Shown: positions 9,867 to 43,390 of the stretch, piece after piece
Layout of the letters: each line of letters begins with the position of its first letter
Position numbering within the stretch: the stretch's first letter is position 1
From: a virus
Lineage: Duplodnaviria > Caudoviricetes
DNA: 64,000 bases
Direction: 5' to 3' (one strand)
IMG/VR virus record: IMGVR_UViG_3300032332_001510
Coordinates: 13,646 to 77,645 of that record
Program-made: the position numbers and the translations under genes
Notes under the pieces: model-generated
Database searches by the model: none
Seen by the model: only the letters and a program-made list of their open reading frames with translations
Told to the model about the DNA's origin: nothing

Positions 9867-9951
9867 GTGCTTGGTCCTTTTTAAAAACAATTTTCGAGAA
9901 CAAATATTATAGCAAATTAAATTGTGTTTTTCAAGAAAATAATTTTTGTGG

Positions 9952-10025: not shown

Positions 10026-10030
10026 ACATT

Positions 10031-10105
10031 TGGCTCCCCAGCGTGGGATCGAACCACGGACCAACAGATTAACAGTCTGCTGCTCTACCGCTGAGCTACT
10101 AGGGA
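10031..10105 (-). tRNA. tRNA-Asn(GUU)
   Basis: TAGCTCAGCGGTAGAGC D arm, CAGACTGTTAATCTG anticodon arm, CCA. Confidence 0.95.
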
Positions 10106-10109
10106 ATTT

Positions 10110-10186
<77 letters not shown>

Positions 10187-10238
10187 AGAATAAAAAGTCC
10201 CCAGCAGTGCTCATCAGCACACATCTGGGGACACAAAC

Positions 10239-10832
10239 TTAATCGTCGTTGCTGTCGTCTAGTTCCATAAATACGTCTACTAAAACATCTCGGTATGGTT
10301 GATCAACCATGTGCAAGTCTAGCAAGTAAGTATCTAGGTGACAATTGCGTAATAGCTGAGCATGATACATAAATTGACCATAAGCTTCTAAGTCTTGACT
10401 AATACTTTGATTGGCATAGTCTTCAATAGCTTGTGCAACCATGTCTAGTAGTGGTTCTGGCATTTGAGATTTAGTAGCGACTCTAACTAATTTTAGGGCT
10501 TTGCCTTCACGATCACGCATAATCTGATTACGTTTAGCTTCTGCCCAAGTCTGGCCCCCGTCACCGCCCCATAAATCCCAAGCTACTCGGCCTTTGCTAG
10601 GAAATCCCTCTTCACCACTGTTAAATCCTGTGGCACGCTTGTCAACTTCATGACGACTAAAAAAGCTATGCATTCGCAATACAACACTAGCACTTAGTGG
10701 CTCACGATTTTTAAGTTGATTGGCACGAGCCAAGCCTACCAGCGTACCACCCGGGTTGCCTTCCTCATGCCACACTAATGCACGTTTAGCCGCACTTGCC
10801 ATGCCGCTAGTGGGAGTATAAGTTTCTGCCAT
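10239..10832 (-). CDS. hypothetical protein carrying a domain often seen in phage head-maturation proteins
   Basis: RM.SFFSRHEVDK...F..GE.G.PS.GR.AW.LWGGD.G..W motif recognised from environmental phage proteins. Confidence 0.55.
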   Translation of the reverse strand: MAETYTPTSGMASAAKRALVWHEEGNPGGTLVGLARANQLKNREPLSASVVLRMHSFFSRHEVDKRATGFNSGEEGFPSKGRVAWDLWGGDGGQTWAEAKRNQIMRDREGKALKLVRVATKSQMPEPLLDMVAQAIEDYANQSISQDLEAYGQFMYHAQLLRNCHLDTYLLDLHMVDQPYRDVLVDVFMELDDSNDD

Positions 10833-15935: not shown

Positions 15936-16049
15936 AATATTCCCCTTGTTATTATTATTTTTAGGGTTTAAAATAGCAAGTAATACTGGCAAGTATTACC
16001 CGCCTGTTAGCTAACTGCTGTAGTCAGCTTTATTTTTATAACTTTTAAT

Positions 16050-16078
16050 ATTATACAGCGTTGGGCACTAAAAGTCAA
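16050..16078 (-). promoter_or_regulatory. sigma70 promoter of the fibre operon
   Basis: TTGACT-17-TATAAT. Confidence 0.8.
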
Positions 16079-16201
16079 TACTCTAATTTTTTTACCAAAA
16101 TTACACGTACTTTTGTGCGAATATTTTCTTAAAAATTACAATTTTATTTCTATACGACAAAACTTGTCACATTACTAGTCATAAATTGAACGGACAAAAT
16201 A

Positions 16202-16230
16202 AAAGCGGCAAGGGGTTAGCTTGCCGCTTC
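16202..16230. terminator. hairpin terminator after rubredoxin
   Basis: AAGCGGCAAG/CTTGCCGCTT 10-bp stem. Confidence 0.7.
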
Positions 16231-16233
16231 ATA

Positions 16234-16368
16234 TTACTCTACTAAAAAGTATTCGTCTTTGTGGCATCCGCATTCGGGGCACAAGTAGAACTGTGGTAAC
16301 TCGTCCCACTTGCCATCTGTTGCCTCGTCATGTACATTACCACAAACTTCGCATTCATATTTGTTCAT
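16234..16368 (-). CDS. rubredoxin (44 aa; absent from ORF track)
   Basis: MNKYECEVCGNVHDEATDGKWDELPQFYLCPECGCHKDEYFLVE: CxxCG...W.ELP...CPxCG. Confidence 0.85.
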   Translation of the reverse strand: MNKYECEVCGNVHDEATDGKWDELPQFYLCPECGCHKDEYFLVE

Positions 16369-16377
16369 TGTATTATC

Positions 16378-16539
16378 TCAATAGCCGTTACGAAAATCCA
16401 TGCCGCGCTGGTAACGATCCCAGTTACGCATACGAGACTCTAGTTCCATAATATCTTTAGGGTCGCAATCACGGATATAGTCGTTAAGATCATAAGGTTT
16501 AAACATTTGCTGTAGGTTACGCCACAATTCACTTAGCAT
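16378..16539 (-). CDS. DUF3563-like small protein (53 aa; absent from ORF track)
   Basis: MLSELWRNLQQMFKPYDLNDYIRDCDPKDIMELESRMRNWDRYQRG resembles the Burkholderiales D..ELE.R.R family. Confidence 0.5.
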   Translation of the reverse strand: MLSELWRNLQQMFKPYDLNDYIRDCDPKDIMELESRMRNWDRYQRGMDFRNGY

Positions 16540-16756
16540 TGTTGACAAACCCGTATAGTTTTTGTGCCTCGCTGACTACATCTTCAAAAGTATACATTTT
16601 AGGCATATACTTTTGATAGTCTTGTTGAATAGCTTGGCCTGTTTTAATCAGTTGCGAAAAACTTTCTTTGGCAAAGTCGCAGTTGATTTCATGTTGACGC
16701 TTTAAATGGTCTGTGGCCATCTCCAGCAATTTTGTTCGTAATTCAAAGGGATTCAT
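16529..16756 (-). CDS. conserved phage hypothetical protein
   Basis: MNPFELR..LLEMA...DVV..A.KLYGFV pattern. Confidence 0.65.
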   Translation of the reverse strand: MNPFELRTKLLEMATDHLKRQHEINCDFAKESFSQLIKTGQAIQQDYQKYMPKMYTFEDVVSEAQKLYGFVNNAK

Positions 16757-16797
16757 ATTATATCCTTGTGTGTGTTGTGTATGCAAATAATTAAGGC

Positions 16798-17001
16798 TTA
16801 TTCGCTTTTGCCTAAGCGACCCATGTCGCCGTCGTGTGTGACACCGCCGCGATCAACAATGTTGATTTGCATTGTTTCTGCGCCGCCAAGTGTAACATCA
16901 CTGGAGTCTCGCCCTGTTTTAGGATCGATTTGATCGGCTTGGCCTTCTTCAAAAGGTGTACCCATAGGCTGTGCGTTTTCAGGTGCTAAAGGGTTTTTCA
17001 T
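16798..17001 (-). CDS. small acidic, likely disordered protein
   Basis: start MKNPLAPE. Confidence 0.55.
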   Translation of the reverse strand: MKNPLAPENAQPMGTPFEEGQADQIDPKTGRDSSDVTLGGAETMQINIVDRGGVTHDGDMGRLGKSE

Positions 17002-17002
17002 A

Positions 17003-17266
17003 TTAGTCCTGTACATCAGGTATATCGCCAACTTCAGTTGGTCCAACATCATTGCCTGCACGCGCAGTATCAACATTAACCATTTCTGAACTAACACCAC
17101 TATCACTAAATCCTTCTGTAGCTGTGTAAGTAGCTCCAGCAGGGTTTGGCATTTGTGCGTTAGGAGTTTGTGTCATATAATCAGGCACGCCTTCAGTGCT
17201 AAAACCTGCTTGTGGTTTTACTGCAGGTTTGCTGACTGGGGGTTGCATATCAAAAGTTGTAGCCAT
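17003..17266 (-). CDS. small Pro/Thr-rich, likely disordered protein
   Basis: ORF with AAGGA RBS. Confidence 0.6.
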   Translation of the reverse strand: MATTFDMQPPVSKPAVKPQAGFSTEGVPDYMTQTPNAQMPNPAGATYTATEGFSDSGVSSEMVNVDTARAGNDVGPTEVGDIPDVQD

Positions 17267-17284
17267 AATTTTTTCCTTGTAAGT

Positions 17285-17599
17285 TTAACCTAAATCTGCA
17301 ATTTTGGTTAGGGTTTTTAATTTGTGGCCTACAATAGTATCTGTAGGCACGTACTTGTCGCCTTGTTTGGTGTACACTCTAACAAGTGCACCAGGATCTT
17401 CGGGGGTACCAGTAATCTTAAAACTACTATTAGGTACTTGTTCACTGCCACTAGTAATTACTTTGGTAATCTTACCGCGGGCAGTACCGCCACTGCTGTT
17501 CCAACTTACGCTATCACCGCGCTTTAAGTCACTGGCCTTTTCAATAATTTTATCTAGTGCAGCAATATACTCACTAAGTTTTTGCGTATAATGATCCAT
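17285..17599 (-). CDS. Hva1/DUF2945 Tudor-like domain protein
   Basis: GD.VSWNSSGGTARGKITKV...GT.EDP motif. Confidence 0.6.
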   Translation of the reverse strand: MDHYTQKLSEYIAALDKIIEKASDLKRGDSVSWNSSGGTARGKITKVITSGSEQVPNSSFKITGTPEDPGALVRVYTKQGDKYVPTDTIVGHKLKTLTKIADLG

Positions 17600-17603
17600 G
17601 ATC

Positions 17604-17948
17604 TTACTTCATTGGATATGTAGGGTACAGGCCTTTGCAGGCGGTACACTGACAAGTTGGATCATGAAATGGGTTTATTGGTAGTGCAGGTTGAACTGGT
17701 TGTACTGGTGTCATGTCTTTTCCTTCGGGAATTGGACCGTGTGGCCCAGGCTCAACAATATTAATTCCGTTTGGGCCAACGGGTTTCTTTTTTGGCTTTT
17801 TACTATCCACAACAGGCTCCTTTAAGTTTGGATTGTTAATGTGAATAGCTGCCGCTGCTGCCTCACATTTAGCTAGTGTATCAAATTGGCAGTTGCCATG
17901 CTGGCCATATTTATATTTACCATTACTGCATTGCATACATGGCATCAT
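17604..17948 (-). CDS. hypothetical Cys/Pro-rich protein
   Basis: MPCMQCSNGKYKYG...C...KCE N-terminus; C-terminal CQCTAC. Confidence 0.55.
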   Translation of the reverse strand: MMPCMQCSNGKYKYGQHGNCQFDTLAKCEAAAAAIHINNPNLKEPVVDSKKPKKKPVGPNGINIVEPGPHGPIPEGKDMTPVQPVQPALPINPFHDPTCQCTACKGLYPTYPMK

Positions 17949-17954
17949 GCTCTC

Positions 17955-18266
17955 CTAGGTATGTTCTATGATTTTAATTGGTGTAGCACTAATAGCACTG
18001 CAACATATTTCACAGGGCTTGGCTAGGGTAGGATTGCCACTAGCGTCATATCTAGTAACAAATATTCTGTGTGCACGCGCAATGTCTGCGCAGCGGGTAA
18101 TGGCTGCAATTTCTGCGTGTAAGTAAATATGATGTTCTTTACCAACACGTTTAGCGTGCTTAGCTTGGACAGGATGTGATTTTACATAACTGTTTTGTCC
18201 AACGCTAAGCACGCGCCCACGTTTGTCGTATATAATTGCTGTTACTTGTTGTCGTTTGCTGCTCAT
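17955..18266 (-). CDS. CMP/dCMP-type zinc deaminase
   Basis: HAEIAAI and PCEIC motifs. Confidence 0.82.
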   Translation of the reverse strand: MSSKRQQVTAIIYDKRGRVLSVGQNSYVKSHPVQAKHAKRVGKEHHIYLHAEIAAITRCADIARAHRIFVTRYDASGNPTLAKPCEICCSAISATPIKIIEHT

Positions 18267-18277
18267 ATTCTTTTTAG

Positions 18278-18369
18278 TGGCAGAGAGTGTGGGATTCGAA
18301 CCCACGGTACACATCACTGCATACGACGGTTTAGCAAACCGCTGCCTTCGGCCACTCAGCCAACTCTCT
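18278..18369 (-). tRNA. tRNA-Ser(GCU)
   Basis: Long variable arm, CGGTTTGCTAAACCG anticodon arm, GCCA end. Confidence 0.92.
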
Positions 18370-19516
18370 ATTTCAATAAGTCTTGTAGTCTAACAATAAC
18401 CATTCTACTAGTTATTTTTTTACTGCACTCAAAATGTCTGGCAGTATCCTTGTGGTCAGGACACCACATCCAGTCTCCGCGATCAAATATGTGTCTGTTA
18501 TAACATCCAGTACAACTATTTTTAGGAGCTTTAATTCGTTTGCAATTACTTTGCATTTCAGTAATAGGATTACTAAATCCGCTAATTAAAATCATAGGCG
18601 TATTTGTTGCCCAAGCTAACCAGCTTAATCCACTACCAATTCCAATAAATGCTGCTGAATGTCTAAGTTCTTCTATAGCTATTTCAATATTACCATTAGA
18701 CTCTACTGGAATAGTGCCTTTGGGTATATAATTACCCATAAATCCATTTTGTTCTTTGCCTAATAGTTTAACCTCGTATCCTTCTTTATTTAACCAATCA
18801 ACAACTTCTTGCCAGCCTGTAGAGTTATTCCAAAACTTGGCTTGAGCAGTACTAAATATACTAATACAAACTTGTTTTTTAGGCTGCGGTCTGGGCCGTT
18901 CATCTATTAGAGGTCGTATTTCTTTAAAAGGCAGTCCTAGTATATCACTAGCAATTTGCTGATGCGGCACACCTAAAAAAGTATCTCTGTGATAGTCTGG
19001 ATTAAATCCGACACTAGTTTTATTATAGTAAACACCTATTTTATATTTAGCAAATATAGCGGAAGTTTCTTGTACTGCTCCTGAATCGGTGATATGTAAA
19101 TTAGGATAATACTCTTTTTTAAAGAAATTCTCGCTATAAACTGCGCCGTAACTTCCAGCATATACTATACAATTGTGCTTTTTTCTAAACTCTTCCATAT
19201 AAGGAAACCAGCCTAAATTATCGCCCAATGATCCGCTATCTATTTCAATTACTACATTTTTATTTTCAAGGTTAAGTTTATACTCCCAGAATAATACGCC
19301 GGTTTTATGTACAGTAATATGCCAATTTACAAAATATTGTACACTACATTTACACCAACTATTGCCATCAATAGTTGTTGTGTAATAAGTTTCGCCAGTA
19401 TCAGCATCATCAAAATTAATAGTATATTCAGCATTTGTTAAACTTTCTAATTTAACAAATGCGCCGCTAATAAAATTATAGCTAATTAATACGTCTTCTA
19501 CAGTTTCATATTGCAT
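18368..19516 (-). CDS. TibC/Aah-like autotransporter O-heptosyltransferase family glycosyltransferase (GT9-like)
   Basis: N-terminal beta domain, SLGD..W.PY..EFRKKH, STAQAKFWNN..GW, GSGLSWLAWA, ISGFS, and Fe-binding CTGC...CP...FEC. Confidence 0.8.
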   Translation of the reverse strand: MQYETVEDVLISYNFISGAFVKLESLTNAEYTINFDDADTGETYYTTTIDGNSWCKCSVQYFVNWHITVHKTGVLFWEYKLNLENKNVVIEIDSGSLGDNLGWFPYMEEFRKKHNCIVYAGSYGAVYSENFFKKEYYPNLHITDSGAVQETSAIFAKYKIGVYYNKTSVGFNPDYHRDTFLGVPHQQIASDILGLPFKEIRPLIDERPRPQPKKQVCISIFSTAQAKFWNNSTGWQEVVDWLNKEGYEVKLLGKEQNGFMGNYIPKGTIPVESNGNIEIAIEELRHSAAFIGIGSGLSWLAWATNTPMILISGFSNPITEMQSNCKRIKAPKNSCTGCYNRHIFDRGDWMWCPDHKDTARHFECSKKITSRMVIVRLQDLLK

Positions 19517-23017: not shown

Positions 23018-23248
23018 TTACATACCCTCAATGTCTCTGCAATATTTACAGATTGGGTTATTATCTAAGTCTGGAACTAATTTATATTCCCAGCGGCCGC
23101 AATGCGTACACTGTGGAATTCCAGGGCCGCCATGCTTAGTTAACTCCTGAAAACTAATTCCAAGATCTTCACAAGTAGCGGCTAAGTCTTTTCGTGTGCC
23201 CAATAGCTCACGAACAAGTTTATTTGTCAGTTGGTTTGAAACGATCAT
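23018..23248 (-). CDS. small Zn-finger protein
   Basis: CTHC...CKYC. Confidence 0.55.
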   Translation of the reverse strand: MIVSNQLTNKLVRELLGTRKDLAATCEDLGISFQELTKHGGPGIPQCTHCGRWEYKLVPDLDNNPICKYCRDIEGM

Positions 23249-23684
23249 CTAAGTGTTGGTGAGTTTTCTCAAATTCCAGTAGGAACATAATACAGCAAGC
23301 TGCGTGGGCTAAATGTGATAAGCCAGACTCAGGGTCTTTATCTTCACCATCATTAAATGCCATCAAGTGTCGCATTGCTGCGCTTAGGGGACGCGACCAT
23401 TGAAAGCCTTTACGCCAGTTATGTGCTGCGTATTTTTCCTTGCCAAATGCCATTACCATAGCTGTTTGCTCTAAGGCCTCACGGCTAAGTAAGTTCATAG
23501 GGGCTTTGCCACTGTCGTGTTTTACTGCACTAAGTTTAATATCAGCGTCCATGTTTAAATATGTATTAATTAATTTTTCTCGTTCAGCCAAGGGCATTTC
23601 TGGTATTTTAGTTGGAATATAAGTACCAGCAAACTCTTTAAGGGCTTGTATATTTTGAACGTCTAGTGTAAAAGTATTTTTCAT
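23220..23684 (-). CDS. dATP/dGTP diphosphohydrolase domain protein (DUF5664)
   Basis: KHDSGKAP..LL, FG..KYA.HNWRKG, RHL, D.ESGLSHLAHA. Confidence 0.82.
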   Translation of the reverse strand: MKNTFTLDVQNIQALKEFAGTYIPTKIPEMPLAEREKLINTYLNMDADIKLSAVKHDSGKAPMNLLSREALEQTAMVMAFGKEKYAAHNWRKGFQWSRPLSAAMRHLMAFNDGEDKDPESGLSHLAHAACCIMFLLEFEKTHQHLDDRFKPTDK

Positions 23685-24074: not shown

Positions 24075-24509
24075 ATGATAAAATTCCTAATATTTGGCCT
24101 GTTAGCGCTTCCACAATTACTAGATTCAGCACCTATTCCTAAAGACTGGGTATACAACAACGAGACGGTTTGTTTGGCTAAAAACATATATCATGAAGCT
24201 CGTGGAGAATCACTGCGTGGAAAATTAGCAGTGGCTAAAGTTACACTAAATCGCGTAAACAGCGGTAAATTCAAAAACACAGTTTGTGGCGTAGTATATC
24301 AGCGCGGGCAGTTTAGTTGGACTAATAGCAAGTATAAACCTATCTTAGATAAACACGCTTGGACAGAAAGCTTACATTTGGCTAAACTGCTAATGCTAAA
24401 TCCTGAATTAAGCAAAACCCCTGCTATGTACTACCATAACCTTAGGGTCAAACCTAAGTGGCAACTAGAACGCACAGATAAAATTGGCAATCACGTATTT
24501 TACACCTAA
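24075..24509 (+). CDS. cell wall hydrolase (SleB/Hydrolase_2 family)
   Basis: CLAKNIYHEARGE, AVA.VTLNRV, CGVVYQ..QFSW, IGNHVFY. Confidence 0.9.
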   Translation: MIKFLIFGLLALPQLLDSAPIPKDWVYNNETVCLAKNIYHEARGESLRGKLAVAKVTLNRVNSGKFKNTVCGVVYQRGQFSWTNSKYKPILDKHAWTESLHLAKLLMLNPELSKTPAMYYHNLRVKPKWQLERTDKIGNHVFYT

Positions 24510-24521: not shown

Positions 24522-25202
24522 ATGCAACAAGTTAAACTAATGTGGATGACACCTGATATTGACGAGCAAATTGCCTACATTGCCCGTGTAAGCAATCCTA
24601 AAAATCAGGATAATAAAAATATTACTGGATTGTTGCAGTATATGATCAAACACGGACACGTTTCACCGTTTGAAATGGCTAATGTGTGCTTAGAGATCTC
24701 CACCACTCGTGATATTGCACGTCAAATTTTACGGCATCGCAGCTTCTCTTTCCAAGAGTTTTCACAGCGGTATGCAGACGTGAATAGCCTGGGCGAGTTG
24801 CAGCGGCGTGAGTGTAGGCTGCAGGACACCAAGAATCGTCAAAACTCCCTAGAGCCTGATTTAGCCGTAGACAAGCAGCGACAACTTGCCTATCAGTGGG
24901 AAGTGCTACAAGACGCACTAATTAAGAAAACTACTGAAGTGTATGCTTGGGCACTGGAGCAGGGCATAGCTAAGGAGCAGGCCCGGGCTATTCTGCCTGA
25001 GGGTCTGACGCCCAGCAAAATGTACATGAACGGTACGTTACGCAGTTGGATCTTTTACTTGCAACAACGTCTGGACGTGTCAACACAAAAAGAACATCGT
25101 GAACTTGCTGAAATGATTTTGACTAAATTACGTTTTGCTGCGCCTATCACTATTGGGGCTTTCTTTCCACAGTCTGTGACTGAAGAAGAATTTTCTATTT
25201 AA
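24522..25202 (+). CDS. thyX: FAD-dependent thymidylate synthase
   Basis: HVSPFE, RHRSFSFQEFSQRYA, R......QKEHR. Confidence 0.95.
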   Translation: MQQVKLMWMTPDIDEQIAYIARVSNPKNQDNKNITGLLQYMIKHGHVSPFEMANVCLEISTTRDIARQILRHRSFSFQEFSQRYADVNSLGELQRRECRLQDTKNRQNSLEPDLAVDKQRQLAYQWEVLQDALIKKTTEVYAWALEQGIAKEQARAILPEGLTPSKMYMNGTLRSWIFYLQQRLDVSTQKEHRELAEMILTKLRFAAPITIGAFFPQSVTEEEFSI

Positions 25203-25257
25203 TCTTGACTTTTATAGCTGGCCATGCTATAATATTATTATTCGCTGGGAGTTTACC

Positions 25258-25602
25258 GTGAATGTTATCATATACACAACAGATTTTGAACCAATCACGG
25301 TTGTTGATCTTCCAAAATCTGTTTTAGATAAAATAGAACGACAAGGAGGAGCTAAACTAGCATTAGGCCCACCAGAAGATGACGAAGGTAAGCCCGCTAA
25401 TCCACCTATATGTACTATAGTAATGTGTAAATTACGCTGGTTTAATGGTGAAGAAAAGGTAGTCTTAGTCACTAAAGACGAAGAGTCTGCACTATTATTA
25501 AAACCTGAATGGCTACCGGGCCAACGTGGAGTATATAACCTTCTATACAATCATATTAAAAAGCTTACTAAACAACTAATAAACCGAGATGATAATGCGT
25601 AA
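25258..25602 (+). CDS. hypothetical protein
   Basis: ORF (GTG start) after TTGACT-17-TATAAT promoter at about 25205-25233. Confidence 0.65.
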   Translation: MNVIIYTTDFEPITVVDLPKSVLDKIERQGGAKLALGPPEDDEGKPANPPICTIVMCKLRWFNGEEKVVLVTKDEESALLLKPEWLPGQRGVYNLLYNHIKKLTKQLINRDDNA

Positions 25603-25780
25603 ACGTCAAATACTACAACAAATGATGTCTGGTTTATCACAAAGATCTAGTCGTAATAAGTCTTGGCATATGATGCAGCAACAAGCTGAGCCACCACAAG
25701 AGTATCTTGAAGACGATGGCCCACTAACTGATAGCCAGATCAAACAACTTAAAGATAACGTGAGAACTAAATATGCATAA
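25595..25780 (+). CDS. hypothetical protein
   Basis: operonic overlap. Confidence 0.5.
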   Translation: MRKRQILQQMMSGLSQRSSRNKSWHMMQQQAEPPQEYLEDDGPLTDSQIKQLKDNVRTKYA

Positions 25781-25979
25781 TTGTCGTCGTTGTGATGAGC
25801 CAGTAGATCCACGTCGCTGGGCACTTAAACATACTAAAAAGTTGTGTATGCCTTGTGGCGAGGCGGCCAGTAAGCAGGTTACTCGTACCATAGTTCCACT
25901 ACACAAAAGCAATTATTTTCCAGTATTCAACCTAAATGATCTTAAGGGTATTAATAACAAAGGCGGCCTAGTTCGATGA
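25773..25979 (+). CDS. DksA/TraR-like C4 zinc-finger protein
   Basis: CRRCDEPVDPRRW...LCMPC. Confidence 0.55.
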   Translation: MHNCRRCDEPVDPRRWALKHTKKLCMPCGEAASKQVTRTIVPLHKSNYFPVFNLNDLKGINNKGGLVR

Positions 25980-26245
25980 TTGATCAAGTATTACAACAAC
26001 TGTTACCACAACAAAAACCACAGATTCCACAAATGCCTAAGCCTATGCAGGAAGCGGCATATAGCGCGCATATGCAGCTAAACAATCCACAACTTCAAAG
26101 GTTTTCAGAAGAACAAAAGATTGAGCTAATGCTAATGATATTTGGCGAAAATATTGTGCGTCAGTGCGCACTGCAAGCTAAGCTGGCACTACTAGATGAG
26201 GAAAAGGTTGATCAAGCAATTCTTAAACACTATGGACTACACTAA
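25976..26245 (+). CDS. hypothetical protein
   Basis: operonic overlap. Confidence 0.6.
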   Translation: MIDQVLQQLLPQQKPQIPQMPKPMQEAAYSAHMQLNNPQLQRFSEEQKIELMLMIFGENIVRQCALQAKLALLDEEKVDQAILKHYGLH

Positions 26246-26306
26246 GCACTGTCCGCCCTGTAATCAGAACTGTAATCAGGGTAGAAATTGTCCAGCTAGA
26301 AAATAA
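26232..26306 (+). CDS. 24-aa Cys-rich peptide (absent from ORF track)
   Basis: MDYTKHCPPCNQNCNQGRNCPARK. Confidence 0.5.
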   Translation: MDYTKHCPPCNQNCNQGRNCPARK

Positions 26307-26318
26307 TTGGAGGGGTGC

Positions 26319-26507
26319 ATGAAACCCAACACATTAAAACTACTAGAGCGTTGCATTGAAGACGGTGTACAAACCGGCGTTTATCGCAGCTTTAAATACA
26401 CAGATGAACCTAGTAGGGATCAAATTGTTGAGCAAGTATTACATAATGTAATGAATGAACTGCACGAGTGGTTTGAGTTTGAACCGCTAGAAGATAAGTA
26501 TCAGTAA
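26319..26507 (+). CDS. hypothetical protein
   Basis: GGAGG RBS before MKPNT. Confidence 0.65.
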   Translation: MKPNTLKLLERCIEDGVQTGVYRSFKYTDEPSRDQIVEQVLHNVMNELHEWFEFEPLEDKYQ

Positions 26508-26598
26508 CACCACAGGGGCATTCAGCGGCAATATTTTGCAGTTGAATGCCCTTTGTGTTTGTGCTATAATATTATATAATTTGAAAAGGAATACAGCA

Positions 26599-26787
26599 AT
26601 GTCAAAGGTATGGGTCGATCCGCCGGGCGGCTGGCGGTATGGGTTTCCGCAGATTTGGGACGACAGTAAAAATCCTGACGTATACAACTGGTTGTACTGG
26701 GCAGGCTATCCTGACGAAGTTCGTGAAAGTTATGGCAAACACTTTTATATGCGTATGTGGGAAGTAGTGGAGGATAGCAATGCCTGA
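26599..26787 (+). CDS. conserved small phage protein
   Basis: VDPPGGWRYGFP motif; AAGGA RBS. Confidence 0.6.
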   Translation: MSKVWVDPPGGWRYGFPQIWDDSKNPDVYNWLYWAGYPDEVRESYGKHFYMRMWEVVEDSNA

Positions 26788-27073
26788 TAATTTACAAGCA
26801 TTTTATGCCTGGTTTTATGAGCTGGAAGGCTTTGGTTTTCGTGCTGAGCGACTGCTGGACGATTTGGGCAACAACGAAGAGCTGTACGATAAAATGCTGC
26901 CGTGGCTTAAAGCTGCATACGAAATTGGCAAACAAGAGGGGCTAGACAAATGAACAAACAAGCACTAGAAGCAGTTATGGAATTGTATCAAGTAGACCGA
27001 GTAACTGCACTGCAGCTTTACTGGGATGAAATTGAGCATATGACGTGGCTGTTAAATAAAAGCAAGGAGTCTG

Positions 27074-27349
27074 ATGATGCGGAAGTTTGATGACGTTACT
27101 GAACCTGAAAACTTTGATCCTGAGCAGATGCAACTAGAATTTGCGCCAGGCTGCTTTGATGATTTTGAGGGTACACAGGAGGAACTGAATGCCCTAGTTG
27201 AACATATCAAGGAAATGTTTGCTGCTGGCAAGTTTCTTAGTGAAGGCCGTGAGTTAACTGACGAGGACTTTGACACACTAAGCGAGTCTACTAAGCAAAA
27301 GATTATTGGTTTAAATGATCCCGATCAACCTAAACGGAACCTAAACTAA
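27074..27349 (+). CDS. acidic hypothetical protein
   Basis: AAGGAG RBS. Confidence 0.65.
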   Translation: MMRKFDDVTEPENFDPEQMQLEFAPGCFDDFEGTQEELNALVEHIKEMFAAGKFLSEGRELTDEDFDTLSESTKQKIIGLNDPDQPKRNLN

Positions 27350-27684
27350 TGCAAAAATATATCCTAAACGGCGAAGTAGCCATTATCCACAGCGATGATT
27401 GGGGTACAGCCTGGGCTACTTGGTATCCTGAAACTATGTTTGATCGTGAACTAATCAAACACTACTTGCGTTGGTTAGGGACTGATTGTGATACTAAACT
27501 AGAGCACGAGGCAGAGTACGCTGCCCGTTTATATCTTGAGCACGCACATCCAGACGTGGTTTTTCGCGGATTTGATGGGCTTAAACTAACCTGGATTAAA
27601 CAGGGCCAAGAATTTATTATCAAGGAGTATGATGGCATTGAAACCATTGTGCTCAAAGACAAAATTAAGTGGTTAGTAGCATGA
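27349..27684 (+). CDS. conserved phage hypothetical protein
   Basis: GEVAI..S..WG..W.TW...EYDG.E. Confidence 0.65.
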   Translation: MQKYILNGEVAIIHSDDWGTAWATWYPETMFDRELIKHYLRWLGTDCDTKLEHEAEYAARLYLEHAHPDVVFRGFDGLKLTWIKQGQEFIIKEYDGIETIVLKDKIKWLVA

Positions 27685-28052
27685 AGGTTAAGTATTCTAC
27701 AAACTGGATGGGTCCAGCTAGCATGGACTGGTATCGCCGGCGTGGTTTAACCACACTAGAACATCATGTACAAGAACAGGACAATCCATATACTGGACGC
27801 AAAAGGGGTGAGCACTACAAAATGGAAATAATTAACCACAACTATAGTTGTGGTCGTATTGATGTAATGGGCACTGACGATCCACGCGGTGAGGAAATTG
27901 GTGTGCCGCCTATGCTTAGCCTAGACTGGTGTAGGTTTGGTCGCTGGCTAGATACCTTTGAAACGGATGCACCGTGGACACTAGACCAACTAGTAGAACT
28001 ATACGAACGTGCTAATCCTAAGATTACTTGGGATACTTATGAGGAACACTAA
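27681..28052 (+). CDS. hypothetical protein
   Basis: operonic overlap. Confidence 0.6.
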   Translation: MKVKYSTNWMGPASMDWYRRRGLTTLEHHVQEQDNPYTGRKRGEHYKMEIINHNYSCGRIDVMGTDDPRGEEIGVPPMLSLDWCRFGRWLDTFETDAPWTLDQLVELYERANPKITWDTYEEH

Positions 28053-28676
28053 ATGCTAGAAACTATATGTGATGTGCTTAAACAGGGCTATGACAGGAAC
28101 TGGAGTACTAGTCGTGACAGTAATGTTAGTATCCGACATTACGGTCGCGACTACTTTTTTATTACACCTACCGGTGTTCGTAAGCAAACCATGCAGCCTG
28201 ATCAGTTTAAAAAGATTAGGGTGGCCGGGGATAGTTGGGAAGAGCTGGAGTATACACCTATTAGCCGCAACCTAAAGCCTAGTGGTGAACTTCCACTGCA
28301 CTTTGGCCTACAAAAACACATGGGCCAGCACAGCGACGATACCCGAGTGGTAGTCCATCTTCATCCTACTTACACAGTAGCTGCTATGCACGCTGGCATT
28401 GAGTTAGCTGACCTGGTCAAAGACTTTCCTGAGCTTAGCCGATATACCAAAGTAGCTAAAAATGTTGGCGATCAACCGCCTATTAGCCAGGAATTGGCAA
28501 CGGCTTGTCACCAGCAGCTGGAGGTTGATCCCTACAGTGGTTACGTTGCCTACGACATTGTAGGTCTTAAGGGTCATGGAGTTGTAGCTATCGACCGTAG
28601 CCCTTGGCGGGCTTATGAACATATTGAGCGTTTAGAACATATTTGTAAGATTGTGCTGGTATCGGGGAATTACTAA
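28053..28676 (+). CDS. class II aldolase/adducin family protein
   Basis: NVSIR, ITPTG, PSGELPLH, VVHLHP, LKGHGVVA. Confidence 0.88.
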   Translation: MLETICDVLKQGYDRNWSTSRDSNVSIRHYGRDYFFITPTGVRKQTMQPDQFKKIRVAGDSWEELEYTPISRNLKPSGELPLHFGLQKHMGQHSDDTRVVVHLHPTYTVAAMHAGIELADLVKDFPELSRYTKVAKNVGDQPPISQELATACHQQLEVDPYSGYVAYDIVGLKGHGVVAIDRSPWRAYEHIERLEHICKIVLVSGNY

Positions 28677-33363: not shown

Positions 33364-33560
33364 AGGGTTTACCCTATTAGGGAAAGTCCCTATGTTGTAT
33401 TTTTGCCCGCACGCTTGACGCGGCCCCCAAAATTATGGTATAATTTTGGCGCCTGATCGTTCTAAAATTTAGGATGACTCTAAGGGTTTACCCTAGTGTT
33501 GTATTTTCGCACCAGCCCTTGACACGCCGCCCATTATACTAGTATAATGGGCGCCATTTT
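33364..33560. promoter_or_regulatory. two copies of the repeated palindrome/promoter element
   Basis: AGGG..CCCT palindromes, TGTTGTATTTT, TTGAC-18-TATAAT, GGCGCC; perfect 26-bp palindrome at 33528-33553. Confidence 0.8.
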
Positions 33561-35104: not shown

Positions 35105-35312
35105 ACACGAATTTTTGGCTCATGCCAAGATTTGCAAAAATACAACATAGGGGTTTTCCCCTATTGACAAAAAAATTTTGCCGTGGTAAAATTTTGGCGC
35201 GTCAGCTGTTGTAAAAATACAACAGCACAAAAAATTTACGAAATTTTTCTTGACGCGGCCCAAAATTATATGTTATAATTTTGGCGCCATGTGTTGTAAA
35301 AATACAACACAT
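35105..35312. promoter_or_regulatory. repeated element: leftward promoter, TAGGGG..CCCCTA palindrome, two rightward promoters each followed by a TGTTGTA-AAAA-TACAACA hairpin
   Basis: TTGACA-17-TAAAAT at 35164; TTGACG-18-TATAAT at 35250; hairpins at 35205-35226 and 35289-35312. Confidence 0.8.
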
Positions 35313-36532: not shown

Positions 36533-36627
36533 AAAAATACAACAGTAGGGGAAACCCCTATTGACACGCCCCAAAATTATGTGGTATAATTTTGGCGCCG
36601 CAGGTGTTGTAAAAATACAACACCTGC
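36533..36627. promoter_or_regulatory. repeated palindrome/promoter element
   Basis: AAAAATACAACA, TAGGGG-AAA-CCCCTA, TTGACA-18-TATAAT (36561-36590), GGCGCC, 12-bp hairpin at 36600-36627. Confidence 0.85.
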
Positions 36628-37443: not shown

Positions 37444-37547
37444 TAGGGTAACCCCTAGTGTTGTATTTTTGCACGCGGCCTTGACACGGCCCCAAATTAT
37501 ATGCTATAATTTGGCGCCAGCGGTGTTGTTTTTTTTTTTGCAACACC
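37444..37547. promoter_or_regulatory. repeated palindrome/promoter element
   Basis: TAGGGTAACCCCTA, TGTTGTATTTTT, TTGACA-18-TATAAT (37481-37510), GGCGCC, GGTGTTG..CAACACC hairpin. Confidence 0.85.
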
Positions 37548-38478: not shown

Positions 38479-38960
38479 TTTGCGTACTCCTTAGTGCGCT
38501 GTTTCGATGTAGTAATTATAGGCTAGTCAGCCGCACAATGCAAGCCCAAAATCACAAGCTCGTTAGACTATTTTGTTATAGACACAGACTGACTTATAAC
38601 AAATGAGCATGAGCGACTTACTTGCGCGGGCCTAGAATTTTGTGGTATAATATCCTGCGCGGATTCCGTTCTCTTGCCGCAAATTATTATAATTTGTGAT
38701 ATAGTTATAGGCTATGATATGAATAGGGCGGTTATTAGACATTATATTTTGTATAACGATATTGGCCCACCCACACGGCCAACTTTAAGAAAATCTCCAC
38801 AAAACTTTCGGTGCCAAACTACATCATAAGTATGCGCATTATACCTAAAAACGCCAACCATAACATAAATCCGTATACTAATACCGCTAACAACCAACCT
38901 TTTATAATTACTATTAATATTAAAATAGCTAATACTAAACCAATTAAAATTTGCATATAA

Positions 38961-39110
38961 TTACCAATGATGTATTACACCCAGCACAATTACTAAATTT
39001 GTCAACAAATAGCTTAACACTATAAGGGTTCTAATCCAACAAACTACGTCAGCCTCACTATCAGTCAAACCATACTTGTCGCCTAATGCCTTTGCCCACA
39101 GTCTCCACAC
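38961..39110 (-). CDS. 49-aa membrane protein (absent from ORF track)
   Basis: MWRLWAKALGDK...WIRTLIV...TNLVIVLGVIHHW; GGAGA RBS. Confidence 0.65.
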   Translation of the reverse strand: MWRLWAKALGDKYGLTDSEADVVCWIRTLIVLSYLLTNLVIVLGVIHHW

Positions 39111-39245
39111 TATATTCTCCCAAAAACAATATTATATCACTAAAACTAAACAAATTCAAGAAAATTTTTTCAAACACCACAAAATATTCGTAACTTGACA
39201 CTGCTGCCCTAAAGTGTTATACTCTAGTAAACTGGAGGGGTAACC

Positions 39246-39398
39246 ATGGAAATTATCGAACTAATGCTAAAAGCTTGGCCAGTATTTGTGGCCTTTATTA
39301 TGATTGTGGTCCTTTTCGCCAAAGCAGACATGCGCCTAGGCGTGTTGGAAGACAAAGTAAAAACCCTATTCGACCTGTACAATAAGTCTGGCAAATAA
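39246..39398 (+). CDS. small membrane protein (holin-like, tentative)
   Basis: One TM helix plus basic tail; GGAGG RBS; promoter TTGACA-17-TATACT near 39197. Confidence 0.5.
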   Translation: MEIIELMLKAWPVFVAFIMIVVLFAKADMRLGVLEDKVKTLFDLYNKSGK

Positions 39399-39400: not shown

Positions 39401-40189
39401 GTGGCACACTACCGCGCCATTTTTATCAGTGACGTGCACTTAGGTACCAAAGCTAGTAAAGCTGAGTATTTGAGTAGTTTCCTAAAAACCAATACCTGCG
39501 ATGAACTTTACTTGGTAGGCGATATTATCGATGGTTGGAAGGTCAAGCAAAATAAGTTACGCTGGACTAATCAACACACCAATGTAGTCAGACACGTTTT
39601 AGCCAAAGCCAATCGTGAAAAGACCCGAGTAGTCTATGTAGCCGGTAATCACGACGAGTTTCTTAGACCACTAATCACCTATGGATTACAATTTGGTCGT
39701 ATAGAGGTGGTAAACCAGTGTGAATACGTAGACTTTAATGGTCGCCGCTGGTTAGTAACTCACGGCGATATGTTTGACGGCATTACACGCCTAGCACCTT
39801 GGTTAGCTTGGTTAGGTGACAGTGCTTATGACTTCGTACTAGGTTTAAACACACACTTTAATCAGTGGCGGCATCGTTTAGGCTTTGGCTACTGGAGTCT
39901 ATCACAGTGGCTAAAGTCTCGAGTAAAGCGCGCAGTAGATTTTATCTTTAAGTTCGAGCAAACTATTACCCAGTATGCACACAAGCGCAAGTTTTTTGGT
40001 GTAATCTGTGGTCATATTCATCAGGCTGAAATTAAACTGGTCGGTGATATTGGCTATATGAATAGTGGCGATTGGGTTGAAAGCTGCACTGCACTGGTAG
40101 AGCATGAAAATGGTGTGTGGGAAATAATTACTTGGAGGCCTAAAGATGTGGTTACTAATCATCTTAGCAGTACATCAGATGGACCCTAA
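39401..40189 (+). CDS. plcP: PlcP-like metallophosphoesterase (LpxH/UDP-2,3-diacylglucosamine hydrolase-like)
   Basis: FISDVHLG, YLVGDIIDGW, GNHDEFLR, HGDMFD, LGDSAYD, YWSLS, ICGHIH, YMNSGDWVESCTA. Confidence 0.8.
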   Translation: MAHYRAIFISDVHLGTKASKAEYLSSFLKTNTCDELYLVGDIIDGWKVKQNKLRWTNQHTNVVRHVLAKANREKTRVVYVAGNHDEFLRPLITYGLQFGRIEVVNQCEYVDFNGRRWLVTHGDMFDGITRLAPWLAWLGDSAYDFVLGLNTHFNQWRHRLGFGYWSLSQWLKSRVKRAVDFIFKFEQTITQYAHKRKFFGVICGHIHQAEIKLVGDIGYMNSGDWVESCTALVEHENGVWEIITWRPKDVVTNHLSSTSDGP

Positions 40190-40319
40190 GGACGTGCCAG
40201 GCCGGGTAACCTTAGAATTCCGTACAGAACAGGAATGCTTGGCTGCACAACATAGCCTACAGTACCAGCTTAAGTTTCCACAATTTAGGGTTATAGCACA
40301 ATGTCAAAAACAATATTAA
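40146..40319 (+). CDS. 57-aa hypothetical protein (absent from ORF track)
   Basis: MWLLIILAVH...F.TEQEC.AA...AQC. Confidence 0.5.
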   Translation: MWLLIILAVHQMDPKDVPGRVTLEFRTEQECLAAQHSLQYQLKFPQFRVIAQCQKQY

Positions 40320-41302
40320 TAGTAACTGATAATGAGCCCCAGCAAATTAACGGCGTGGTTACAACGTTCCACAACCTGGAACGTTGGGCAGATCGCCATG
40401 GCTACGAGTTTGTATATTGTGATCCCCGGCAGTTCCCTAATTGTGGCGCTCCTGGCTATGGCGATATTAGGCTATCGTGGCCTAGTAAAATTGGCCAAAT
40501 ACTTGAGGGGATAAACCCTGATTACGTACATATTGCGACGGAGGGGCCGCTGGGGCTAGCAGCCCGTTGCTGGATGGATCGGCATGGTTGGCGATATAAT
40601 ACCAGCTATCATACTAAAATACCAGAAGCCTTAAAACGCTACTATGGCATACCAGAATCTTGGACTTATCGTTACCTGCGCTGGTTTCACAAGCACAGTG
40701 GCAAGGTTTTAGCTACTACGGTCAGCATGGTAGACGAGCTTAAGCAACAGGGCTTTTCCGGAACTATTGTGCCCTGGACGCGTGGCGTAGATCGCCAGCA
40801 GTTTTATCCGCTGGAGCATGGGCGTAAAACACCATATCCAACACTCTTATGGGTTGGCAGAGTTGCCCCCGAAAAGTCTTGCGAAGACTTTTGCCAGCTA
40901 GACTACTTGGGTGCTAAAAAGATTGTGGTTGGTGATGGGCCACAACTAAAGTATTTAGCGGCAAAATATCCTGAAGTCCAATTTGTGGGTATGCAAACCG
41001 GCGATGCACTAGCCAGCTACTATCAACAAGCAGATTGCTTGGTTTTTACCAGTCGCTGGGATACTTTTGGTATAGTAATGTTAGAGGCCATGGCGTGTGG
41101 TACACCTGTGGCAGCTTACCCAGTTTGTGGTCCCAAAGACGTTATTGAACTAGACAGAACTGGCTATACTAGTCCAGATCTTAAATTAGCCGTGGCACGT
41201 GCACTGGCAATTCCCCGTCACGTAGTAGTCGTAGCCAGCTATCGTTGGTCGTGGGAAAAATGCTGGCAGATATTTGAATATAATCTAGTAAGGAGACTGT
41301 AA
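40301..41302 (+). CDS. GT4 glycosyltransferase (Agt-like)
   Basis: LIVTD...QINGVVTT, HIATEGPLG, WTRGVD, VGRVAPEK, DTFGIVMLEAMACGTPVAAY. Confidence 0.85.
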   Translation: MSKTILIVTDNEPQQINGVVTTFHNLERWADRHGYEFVYCDPRQFPNCGAPGYGDIRLSWPSKIGQILEGINPDYVHIATEGPLGLAARCWMDRHGWRYNTSYHTKIPEALKRYYGIPESWTYRYLRWFHKHSGKVLATTVSMVDELKQQGFSGTIVPWTRGVDRQQFYPLEHGRKTPYPTLLWVGRVAPEKSCEDFCQLDYLGAKKIVVGDGPQLKYLAAKYPEVQFVGMQTGDALASYYQQADCLVFTSRWDTFGIVMLEAMACGTPVAAYPVCGPKDVIELDRTGYTSPDLKLAVARALAIPRHVVVVASYRWSWEKCWQIFEYNLVRRL

Positions 41303-41622
41303 TGAGTGATGAAAAACTGCAAGAAGCACATGCCAAAGGTCAGCTAATTGAAAAGATTAGCTTTGCACTGCTACCACTGTTATTTACCTGCGTAGTCTAC
41401 TTAATGACTGCACTGCAAAACCTACAACACGACGTTACCATCTTAAACGGTAAAATTAGCTTAGTGGTAACCAGCGATAATAAGCAGGCTACTAATACTG
41501 GTGCTGAATTAGCACGTGAAAAACTGCGCCAAGATTTAGAAAAAGAAATCCAGGCAAATCGTGACTTTATCCACTTAAATCGTGAACGTATTGTTATCCT
41601 AGAAGAAAAGACAAGAAAATGA
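41302..41622 (+). CDS. membrane protein with coiled coil
   Basis: single TM segment followed by heptad-rich tail. Confidence 0.6.
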   Translation: MSDEKLQEAHAKGQLIEKISFALLPLLFTCVVYLMTALQNLQHDVTILNGKISLVVTSDNKQATNTGAELAREKLRQDLEKEIQANRDFIHLNRERIVILEEKTRK

Positions 41623-42101
41623 ACCTGACCCCAACCAGTGCACCTGCAGAGGTACTGGAAATTTCACCAGAAGCACTGGAAGTAGCCAACTGTTACTTGC
41701 AGTGCCAAGATGCTCGTGCCGTAGCAGATAACCTATGTTTACCAGTTGAGTCGGTATCAGGAATCCTTGCCCGCCGCGAGGTCAAAGCCTATATTAACCA
41801 GGTATTTTTTGACCTAGGCTTTAACAACCGTTTCAAGATGCGCAGTGCTATGGACGCAGTCTTAAAACGCAAGTTTCAGGAAATGGAAGAGGCGGATGTA
41901 GGCTCAAACAAAGACATTGCTGAATTGCTAGCATTATCACATAAAATGTCAATGGAACTACTAGATCGCGAGATTCAACTGGAAAAGCTGCGTGCCGAGC
42001 GTGCTGGACCTAAATCGCAAGTAAATGTGCAGATCAATGAAGGCGGAGACGGAACTAAATACGGAGCACTTATTTCACGGCTCCTAGGAGACAAACTATA
42101 A
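41619..42101 (+). CDS. terS: terminase small subunit (T5-like)
   Basis: ISPEALEVAN.YL...; directly upstream of terL. Confidence 0.8.
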   Translation: MNLTPTSAPAEVLEISPEALEVANCYLQCQDARAVADNLCLPVESVSGILARREVKAYINQVFFDLGFNNRFKMRSAMDAVLKRKFQEMEEADVGSNKDIAELLALSHKMSMELLDREIQLEKLRAERAGPKSQVNVQINEGGDGTKYGALISRLLGDKL

Positions 42102-43390
42102 TGCTTAAAGTTTCTAGACCCGATGTAGACTGCGATGAAATCACAGAGTTTCCACTTGAAAGCCGTTTTATTAAACTGCCTATTACTAACTACTTGAAGC
42201 TGTTAGGTGCTTGGGATTCAATGAATCGTCCACAGATTGCCCTAATCAACGCTATTAACGACCCTAAATACCGCTTTGTTTGCGCTGCACTAGCCAGGCG
42301 ACTAGGCAAAACCTATATCGCTAACATTATTGCACAACTAGTCTCCTTAGTCCCCAAGTGCAATGTTTTAATCATCTCGCCAAACTATAACTTGAGTTCG
42401 ATTTCATTTGAGCTGCAACGTAAGTTTATCCGTCACTTTGATCTTGAAGTGGAGCGAGATAACTTAAAGGATAAAGTTGTAGAGCTGTCAAACGGCAGCA
42501 CTATACGCATGGGTTCCTTATCGACAGTAGACAGCACAGTTGGCCGCAGTTATCAAATTATCTTATTTGACGAGGCTGCCCTAGGCAGTGACGGTGAGTC
42601 GGCATTTAATGTGCAGCTACGTCCAACTTTGGACAGACCTAATTCAAAAGCCATTTTTATTTCGACACCCCGCGGCCAACAAAACTGGTTTAGTAAATTT
42701 TATCAGCGTGGGTTTAGTGACGACTATCCTGAATGGTGTTCGATTACTGCTGACTACACTGAAAACTCGCGTATGGCTGAATCGGATGTGCAGGAAGCAC
42801 GTCGTAGTATGTCAAAAGCAGAATTTGAACAAGAATACTTAGCCAGCTTTACAGTGTTTGAGGGTCAAATCTATAATTTTAACCGTGAGGCAAGTATTTG
42901 TGAATACCAACACAAAGAAGGTTGTGAGTACATTGCTGGCTGTGATCCCGGCTATCGTGATGCTACTGCTTTCGTGGTTATTAGTTATAATCCTGTTAGT
43001 GACCAGTTTCATATCGTAGATGAGTATTTGCGGAGTGAGGCTACCACAGACAAGCATGCCCAAGCATTTCGCGAGTACTTAGACAAGTGGCAGGTAGAAG
43101 TAGTATTTATTGATAGTGCAGCAGCACAATTTGCTGGTGACCTTGCCTATACTTACAACATTTCTACTACTAAAGCCAAAAAAGATGTCTTGCCCGGTAT
43201 TGCCTATGTGCAAACATTAATAGAAACTAATAGGTTAAAAGTAGCACCACATTGCATAAATGTCCTAGATGTAATGGACCAGTATCGTTGGGATAATCGT
43301 GAAAATACACAGCGTGAGCGCCCAGTACACGATAAATTCTCACACATGGCTGATGCTATCCGTTATGCACTTTACACATATACTATATAG
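42101..43390 (+). CDS. terL: terminase large subunit
   Basis: ARRLGKT Walker A, ILFDEAA, FISTPRG, RNase H-like GCDPG, DAIRY. Confidence 0.95.
   Translation: MLKVSRPDVDCDEITEFPLESRFIKLPITNYLKLLGAWDSMNRPQIALINAINDPKYRFVCAALARRLGKTYIANIIAQLVSLVPKCNVLIISPNYNLSSISFELQRKFIRHFDLEVERDNLKDKVVELSNGSTIRMGSLSTVDSTVGRSYQIILFDEAALGSDGESAFNVQLRPTLDRPNSKAIFISTPRGQQNWFSKFYQRGFSDDYPEWCSITADYTENSRMAESDVQEARRSMSKAEFEQEYLASFTVFEGQIYNFNREASICEYQHKEGCEYIAGCDPGYRDATAFVVISYNPVSDQFHIVDEYLRSEATTDKHAQAFREYLDKWQVEVVFIDSAAAQFAGDLAYTYNISTTKAKKDVLPGIAYVQTLIETNRLKVAPHCINVLDVMDQYRWDNRENTQRERPVHDKFSHMADAIRYALYTYTI

Follow-up and report, generated by a model that had tools for sequence, protein, structure and literature searches.

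A probable PlcP-Agt lipid-remodelling cassette at the head of the terminase operon of an uncultured T5-like phage

Two enzyme genes ahead of the terminase genes

We analysed a stretch of viral DNA of 64,000 nucleotides (the window; positions 13,646 to 77,645 of the IMG/VR virus record IMGVR_UViG_3300032332_001510), which is part of a 77.6-kb record estimated to be 73% complete. Ahead of its terminase genes the window carries a cassette of two enzyme genes, one for a metallophosphoesterase (PE) resembling the bacterial phospholipase PlcP and one for a glycosyltransferase (GT) resembling the bacterial lipid glycosyltransferase Agt, with a small gene (orf57) wedged between them (Table 1). Both enzyme open reading frames (ORFs) are intact, lie on the + strand and are tightly packed, exactly where a preliminary description of the locus, made from the letters alone, had put them, and their translations contain all of the motifs that it had quoted, namely LGDSAYD, YWSLS, KRAVDFIFKF and NSGDWVESCTA in PE as well as IVTDNEPQQINGVVTT and HIATEGPLG in GT. 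That description made no mention of orf57.

A divergent control region lies upstream of the cassette, which forms part of a gap-free series of genes in the order 50-aa ORF, PE, orf57, GT, 106-aa ORF, TerS and TerL. Within this series orf57 shares its first 44 nt with the end of PE and its last 19 nt with the start of GT, the overlaps between GT and the 106-aa ORF, between the 106-aa ORF and TerS and between TerS and TerL amount to 1, 4 and 1 nt, respectively, and no convincing terminator was found between GT and the terminase genes. The pair had been described as standing at the head of the late block and as being flanked by small membrane genes, and both statements hold: the divergent promoter region lies before it and TerS and TerL directly after it, and Kyte-Doolittle profiles (19-residue windows, threshold ≥1.6) revealed one hydrophobic segment each in the 50-aa ORF, the 106-aa ORF and the two minus-strand ORFs on the other side of the control region, but zero in PE, orf57 and GT. 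The 50-aa membrane gene is kept in some relatives and missing from others, and neither the 50-aa nor the 106-aa ORF has a Pfam or PHROG family match.

Table 1. Features of the cassette and its surroundings (positions in the window)
Feature	Position	Strand	Remarks
Two small membrane-protein ORFs	38961-39110 (phrog_1679); 38819-38956	-	Leftward from the divergent region
Leftward sigma-70-like promoter, TTGAAT-17-TATAAT	39131-39159	-	10/12 matches; TG before the -10 hexamer
Rightward near-consensus extended -10 promoter, TTGACA-17-TGTTATACT	39195-39223	+	11/12 matches; heads the cassette operon
Ribosome-binding site, GGAGGGG	39234-39240	+	Downstream of the rightward promoter
50-aa single-pass membrane protein	39246-39398	+	First gene of the operon; hydropathy maximum 2.45
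PE, PlcP-type metallophosphoesterase, predicted glycerophospholipid phospholipase C	39401-40189	+	262 aa; GTG start
orf57, soluble protein	40146-40319	+	57 aa; two invariant Cys; 5' end within PE, 3' end within GT
GT, Agt/GTcp-type GT4, predicted diacylglycerol glycosyl/glucuronosyl transferase	40301-41302	+	333 aa; ATG start
106-aa protein	41302-41622	+	One transmembrane segment; between GT and TerS
TerS	41619-42101	+	phrog_3802, E 4.5e-37; context, outside the module
TerL	42101-43390	+	Best phage matches are annotated terminase large subunits; context, outside the module

Family assignment of the two enzymes

PE matches Pfam Metallophos (E 8e-11), and its metal ligands D11, H13, D41, N83, H121, H205 and H207 are all intact and invariant across the PlcP-like rows of our alignment. 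Its scores with the two LpxH equivalog models are 43.1 bits (NF003743, cut-off 134) and 30.6 bits (TIGR01854, cut-off 190), with alignments that cover the N-terminal half of PE only, and it is 18-23% identical to true LpxH rows as opposed to 44-49% to PlcP-type rows (Pelagibacteraceae 47%, Mesorhizobium 46%, Burkholderiales 49% and the Pelagibacter phage Mosig 44%). The two groups also differ in their motif variants, PE having GNHDE (H84) and GHIH (I206) where LpxH has GNRD and GHTH, and at 23 positions that are invariant in the PlcP-like rows and different from all four LpxH rows. Four betaproteobacterial genomes each encode a true LpxH (239-290 bits) alongside a PE-like paralogue (35-49 bits), while a Pelagibacteraceae genome encodes the PE-like paralogue only (54 bits) and has no LpxH-level match. 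Grouping with LpxH had been named beforehand as an outcome fatal to a PlcP assignment; a maximum-likelihood tree built from 55 proteins divides the 4 LpxH from the 51 PlcP-like rows by a branch of length 5 (100% support) and places PE among the PlcP-like rows, away from the LpxH paralogues and, by tree and synteny, together with genes that sit upstream of agt-type genes of glycosyltransferase family 4 (GT4) in bacteria.

An AlphaFold (AF2) model of PE, with a mean predicted local distance difference test (pLDDT) score of 78, consists of a metallophosphoesterase core into which a helical segment (residues 123-195) is inserted. All of the top 23 fold matches in the PDB are LpxH (TM-scores 0.50-0.56, 16-22% identity), making LpxH the closest solved fold, and a PDB search by sequence returned a weak LpxH match alone (E 0.003). 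The LpxH structures (PDB 5B49, 5K8K and 6PH9) share with the model the calcineurin-like dimetal core and a helical lid at the same insertion site. With its LpxH-like core and lid, PE thus has the architecture of a lipid-handling enzyme, though it is no LpxH orthologue. Taking scores, tree and motifs together, we assign PE as a PlcP-type metallophosphoesterase that is distinct from LpxH. A reading of PE as a DNA-repair nuclease or Mre11-like enzyme was rejected, as the PHROG matches in this direction are weak and generic.

That PE could nonetheless be a phage LpxH, a UDP-2,3-diacylglucosamine diphosphatase, and GT a transferase acting on the core of lipopolysaccharide (LPS), so that the pair modifies lipid A or LPS, is suggested by the source annotations, which label the family LpxH, by the solved fold and by the custom of virome surveys to put lpxH under LPS biosynthesis. 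Two such studies, one of oligotrophic sea surface waters and one of the Lake Baikal viral metatranscriptome, list "lpxH" as a viral LPS-biosynthesis gene, and these entries may be members of the PlcP family under a wrong name. The sequence of PE contradicts this alternative, which we regard as scarcely credible: PE lies far under both equivalog cut-offs, its identity to LpxH spans 16-23% over all comparisons, its clade is separate from that of the true LpxH of the same genomes, it has His at the position of the GNRD arginine, a homologue occurs in the Pelagibacteraceae genome with no LpxH-level match, and its partner matches the residues of the diacylglycerol-acting Agt/GTcp enzymes (see below).

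GT has the GT-B architecture of GT4 enzymes, with matches to Pfam Glyco_transf_4 (residues 16-166, E 2e-14) and Glycos_transf_1 (residues 173-290, E 4e-21), and a PDB search by sequence gave generic GT4 matches only. The GTcp/Agt clade is characterised by a His104-Asp256 dyad, the Asp of which replaces the Glu of other GT4 enzymes, and by the motifs GRVAxEKN and FPSxTDTFG, and mutation of certain residues, including the diacylglycerol-binding Thr162, Arg163 and Trp320, abolishes GTcp activity (Wei et al., bioRxiv 10.1101/2021.03.25.437072, PMC8231724). Reading the equivalents from an alignment with the Pelagibacteraceae GT encoded next to plcP (41% identity), we found that GT keeps 14 of the 14 residues tested by mutagenesis in the Pelagibacter enzyme GTcp (G18, G82, G85, H104, T160, R161, R187, K192, D254, T255, F256, G257, E262 and W318), among them the dyad H104 and D254 and the diacylglycerol-binding equivalents T160, R161 and W318, and that its donor motifs read GRVAPEKS and FTSRWDTFG. 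In a 48-row tree GT belongs to a 26-row viral clade (99% support) that adjoins the bacterial plcP-adjacent clade within a 45-row Agt-type group; a branch of 1.8 (100% support) divides this group, which includes the Pelagibacteraceae member, from another GT4 subfamily. Both the signature residues and the clustering with plcP-adjacent GT4 enzymes agree with the Agt-like identity first proposed for GT, and we assign it on these grounds to the Agt/GTcp type. A role as a DNA or virion glycosyltransferase was rejected on account of the Agt-specific residues and the synteny.

A well-supported GT4 subclade of other viral cassettes (for example L132, L138, L143, L147 and L193) carries Glu at the position of the dyad Asp (WETFG). 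The D256E mutation lowers GTcp activity by more than 90% (PMC8231724), and the WETFG enzymes may use a different donor or acceptor.

A bacterial operon in a viral setting

While a scan of cellular genome contigs with a single-protein query gave no match, an alignment-based query yielded the loci used for the cellular comparison, the best 80 GTDB loci (79 of them cellular), beyond which closer homologues may exist. The PE homologues in these loci are 47-57% identical to PE and come from Burkholderiaceae, Alcaligenaceae, Robiginitomaculaceae, Phyllobacteriaceae, Sphingobium and Pelagibacteraceae. Immediately downstream, 39 of the 79 cellular loci (Pelagibacteraceae, Sphingobium and Burkholderiales among them) have a GT4 gene whose product is 38-45% identical to GT. 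This neighbourhood matches the type 2 plcP-agt arrangement described in 2016 by Sebastian et al. (PMC4796936), who validated PlcP of SAR11 HTCC7211 through complementation and the Agt homologue of this strain through expression in E. coli. Characterised examples comprise PB7211_983 and PB7211_960 of SAR11 HTCC7211, MED193_17359 of Phaeobacter and Agt of A. tumefaciens (atu2297), and the two kinds of transferase encoded beside bacterial plcP are GT4 and GT2/GT21 (PMC4796936); a PlcP/Agt1/Agt2 pathway has also been described in P. aeruginosa (PMC8528852).

The phage cassette has the same order as the bacterial operon, with the metallophosphoesterase first and the GT4 directly downstream, and it keeps the metal ligands of PE and the tested catalytic, donor-binding and diacylglycerol-binding residues of GT, at 44-49% and 39-45% identity to the bacterial PE and GT counterparts, respectively. 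It differs in that its carrier is a T5-like phage of lytic type, whose terminase operon it heads, in that the 57-aa phage-only protein is inserted between PE and GT, in that the phage PE and GT fall into viral subclades that no sampled cellular genome enters, and in that a conserved near-consensus sigma-70 promoter has taken the place of the Pho box. In bacteria, 43 of 77 loci have a Pho-box match with at most 3 mismatches within 250 nt upstream of the PE homologue (the best-scoring ones cluster ~77-110 nt before the start), compared to a background of 15/385 in random stretches of the same loci. A Pho-box search had been proposed in the preliminary description as a check, and for the phage cassette it came out negative: upstream of PE none was found (the best match has 5 mismatches), close viral loci have none with at most 3 mismatches (0/28), and the whole window contains 3 weak matches, none near the cassette, versus 5.25 expected by chance. 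Pho-box control is a regulatory trait of the operon and not a trait of the enzymes, and the negative result refines rather than refutes the PlcP-Agt assignment.

In place of the Pho box, the rightward promoter is the best in the 3.8 kb scanned, and in 13 related viral contigs the hexamers of both promoters are kept amid variable flanking bases. Three of these relatives (L004, L005 and L011) lack the 50-aa gene and have the rightward promoter immediately before PE. The absence of a Pho box together with a promoter of its own indicates that expression of the cassette is controlled by the phage and not by PhoB, and we infer that unmodified host RNA polymerase would transcribe it once the DNA is available, independently of PhoB.

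Other viral PlcP lineages (L173, L176, L132, L133, L139, L165 and L168) share a recurring direct repeat, (C/T)TGTAAT-N4-CTGTAAT, whose position is constant at ~40-50 nt upstream of the PE start and which is Pho-box-like with 2-3 mismatches. Counting all viral loci, a Pho-box match with at most 3 mismatches is present in 14/104, some of which may be close relatives of one another. Some other phages may hence keep PhoB control, unlike the phage of the window. Five copies of a further sigma-70-like element of ~30 nt (TTGACRCGGCCCC..TG.TATAAT) occur on the + strand of the window at 33415-33444, 33519-33548, 35250-35279, 36561-36590 and 37481-37510, all in the intergenic gaps of a block whose ORFs lie on the opposite strand.

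The phage-only orf57 is conserved at the amino-acid level across divergent viral cassettes and is represented by 41 clusters in a library of 1.84 billion proteins, nearly all of them full-length at 53-71 aa, and its AF2 model is a small alpha/beta protein with a pLDDT of 97. It has no Pfam or PHROG match, its model gave no significant PDB fold match, and its profile was found in none of the bacterial loci. orf57 is a real gene, and as it is missing from several close relatives, it is dispensable.

The viral setting assumed in the preliminary description is borne out by TerL, whose best matches among isolates are annotated terminases of ~113-kb Vibrio phages of the Demerecviridae (50% identity; these phages have TerS-TerL but not the cassette), and by the whole gene order, which is common to ~15 related IMG/VR contigs with a PE identity of 84-91%. 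The window also encodes a T5-style set of replication genes (a Pol A exonuclease domain, primase, DnaB-type helicase, NAD-dependent ligase and ThyX). Comparison with eight related phage contigs gave ratios of nonsynonymous to synonymous substitution (dN/dS) of 0.04-0.10 for PE and 0.07-0.16 for GT, the synonymous sites being close to saturated; this pattern identifies both as functional genes under purifying selection. From these features it is likely that the window derives from an uncultured freshwater T5-like (Demerecviridae-related) phage with a captured and rewired bacterial plcP-agt operon.

An alignment-based scan detected PE relatives on at least 533 IMG/VR contigs. Among 108 viral loci, ~60 have the order PE-(orf57)-GT4 and ~35 the order PE-(orf57)-GT2, with a DesA-type desaturase nearby in several. 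A glycosyltransferase partner is present in ~90% of viral cassettes. The long contigs that we checked (143-345 kb) encode a terminase in 5/5 cases; one has terminal repeats and two are at least 99% complete. Matches to the cassette proteins at 64-72% occur on long metagenome contigs, and contigs 85-95% similar to the cassette are present in freshwater or lake-water metagenome runs of other studies. Viral PE and viral GT form clades of their own in both trees, and no cellular PE homologue above 57% identity was found among the best 80 GTDB loci and 702 sampled genomes, bar L033. The sampled genomes comprise 301 from the order of one Burkholderiales match, in which PE identity reaches at most 55%, and 401 from the class of the Pelagibacteraceae match, with nothing at E ≤ 1e-88; each is a sample and no proof of absence. 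L033 is a 5.6-kb contig in a Lake Mendota metagenome-assembled genome (MAG) of the Bacteroidia; it carries a phage-type PE-orf57-GT4 cassette (64%, 45% and 53% identity, respectively) that nests in both viral clades, and it probably derives from a phage and was binned with the bacterial MAG by mistake.

PE homologues are found in 5 of 50,697 deposited phage records, two of which belong to isolated phages. Pelagibacter phage Mosig EXVC030M has a PlcP-type gene 44% identical to PE beside pstS, and Synechococcus phage S-SRM01 has one 35% identical beside psbA; both are annotated LpxH. Unlike the phage of the window, these two are Kyanoviridae myoviruses and not T5-like, and their genes have no adjoining GT partner.

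In a sister T5-like lineage (L028:5022-9390 and L017-L019) the cassette lies between TerS and TerL, in the order TerS, 168-aa ORF, PE, GT2/GT21, class II aldolase and TerL, with a GT2/GT21-type transferase replacing GT4; the window has a class II aldolase homologue at 28053-28676, far from its cassette. On a 345-kb viral contig of a giant phage (99% complete), a DesA-family fatty-acid desaturase gene directly precedes PE-orf56-GT2 (L021:5200-7626), and its product is shortened (249 aa, 378 bits versus a cut-off of 400). Elsewhere on the - strand of the window, 18368-19516 encodes a 382-aa protein matching a GT9 heptosyltransferase and a TibC N-terminal domain, possibly a second envelope- or protein-glycosylating enzyme of the phage, and 23220-23684 encodes a 154-aa protein with a dATP/dGTP diphosphohydrolase N-terminal domain (PF18909, E 1e-35), which may serve nucleotide-pool editing or modified bases. 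The NAD-dependent DNA ligase (4591-6372, - strand) appears split into an adenylation and OB part (5419-6372) and a BRCT part (4591-5352). Three stretches of 2.2-2.9 kb (7992-10239, 15992-18368 and 25202-28053) contain no ORF of at least 130 aa and may hold small genes, tRNAs or non-coding RNAs.

Proposed function and its meaning

We propose that PE, as a Mn-type metallophosphoesterase with an LpxH-like helical lid, cuts the phosphorylated head group off host glycerophospholipids to leave diacylglycerol, and that GT would then use a UDP-sugar as donor to attach a hexose or glucuronic acid to this diacylglycerol, giving phosphorus-free glycolipids. As glycolipids would be formed from the diacylglycerol, the bilayer would stay intact. 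The freed phospho-head groups would join the host phosphate pool and feed phage DNA synthesis, and remodelling would follow the infection programme and not host PhoB, in keeping with the promoter of the cassette and its place at the head of the terminase operon. Because the cassette is under its own strong promoter and not under the phosphate-starvation switch of the host, the phage probably strips phosphorus from the host membrane during infection. The most likely function is the conversion of phospholipid to diacylglycerol and a phospho-head group, and of diacylglycerol to glycolipid, under phage control.

Three features suggest that the lipid is rebuilt and not destroyed: a GT partner is almost always present, this partner swaps between GT4 and GT2/GT21 just as it does beside bacterial plcP, and a desaturase sometimes accompanies the cassette. 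They bear on the alternative that the pair aids lysis or DNA entry, with diacylglycerol locally destabilising the inner membrane in concert with the neighbouring small membrane proteins. Apart from the single-pass proteins that flank the pair, the evidence is unfavourable to such a role: the conservation of a diacylglycerol-consuming partner points to membrane rebuilding rather than breaking, and the phage has a cell-wall hydrolase gene elsewhere (24075-24509). We consider a lytic or entry function very unlikely.

As for the benefit of phospholipid-to-glycolipid conversion, phosphorus gain for DNA synthesis would be the simplest, and both the pstS gene next to the Mosig homologue and the descent of the operon from the Pho regulon agree with it. 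With the Pho box lost in the lineage of the window, a benefit centred on the envelope stays a serious rival. The same lipid chemistry could change the envelope so as to exclude superinfecting phages via receptors or membrane proteins, or to stabilise the cell until lysis, and published work ties lipid renovation to membrane-protein content and phage attachment (PMC9804370 and PMC9938194). A constitutive-type promoter with no Pho box, the four small membrane proteins that flank the cassette and the GT9/TibC-like glycosyltransferase of the phage would all suit such a role. On the other hand, the PE homologue of Mosig adjoins pstS, the orthologues in bacteria belong to the Pho-box genes, repeats resembling a Pho box precede the gene in some other viral lineages and no feature of the window ties the cassette to a receptor, so that we rate an envelope benefit as rather unlikely, yet well ahead of the lytic and LPS-directed roles.

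Several points weigh against the proposed explanation. Without a Pho box in this lineage, the closest connection to phosphate stress is lost. PlcP liberates phospho-head groups and not free phosphate, and no phosphatase acting on them is apparent in the window. The lid of the PE model is of low confidence (pLDDT 48-67), and the donor motif FTSRWDTFG of GT departs from the consensus FPSxTDTFG by two lineage-specific changes. The link from PE and GT to the characterised SMc00171, PA3219, MED193_17359, PB7211_983 and Atu2297 runs via the Pelagibacteraceae, Mesorhizobium and Burkholderiales homologues, and no RNA runs containing the stretch are listed.

A wider proposal, which we put forward tentatively and hold to be less probable than not, is that of a three-part phage system for mining membrane phosphorus, in which a PhoB-uncoupled PlcP and its glycosyltransferase would convert lipids in every infection and orf57 would activate, target or re-specify one of the two enzymes. 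Present in hundreds of freshwater and marine phages, such a system might raise burst size when phosphorus is scarce and alter the lipid pools of lakes and oceans.

Phosphorus is often limiting for lake bacteria and for phage DNA synthesis, and the known phage phosphate genes pstS and phoA act on uptake; cyanophage pstS was reportedly found by Zeng and Chisholm in 2012 to be regulated by host PhoBR. The phosphate genes of aquatic phages (pstS, phoH and phoA) are likewise host phosphate-stress genes carried by phage, but the PlcP-Agt cassette would act on membrane lipid and not on uptake, and it lacks a Pho box in the lineage of the window. The cassette bears the marks of an auxiliary metabolic gene module, with a viral record, a Demerecviridae-like terminase, conserved gene order and purifying selection. 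In the libraries searched, we found no paper that describes viral plcP or joins plcP with viral auxiliary genes. New here are the T5-like nature of the carrier, the exchange of the promoter, the location of the cassette, which heads the terminase operon, and orf57 as a phage-only gene.

Virome surveys that file PlcP genes under LPS biosynthesis, owing to the routine mislabelling of the family as lpxH, probably misread them. The promoter swap in the T5-like lineage offers a clean test case for host- versus virus-controlled remodelling. If the proposed function is true, the dismantling of host phospholipids would constitute an internal source of phosphorus in virocell metabolism, and the glycolipid signals that serve as indicators of phosphorus stress might be driven by viruses.

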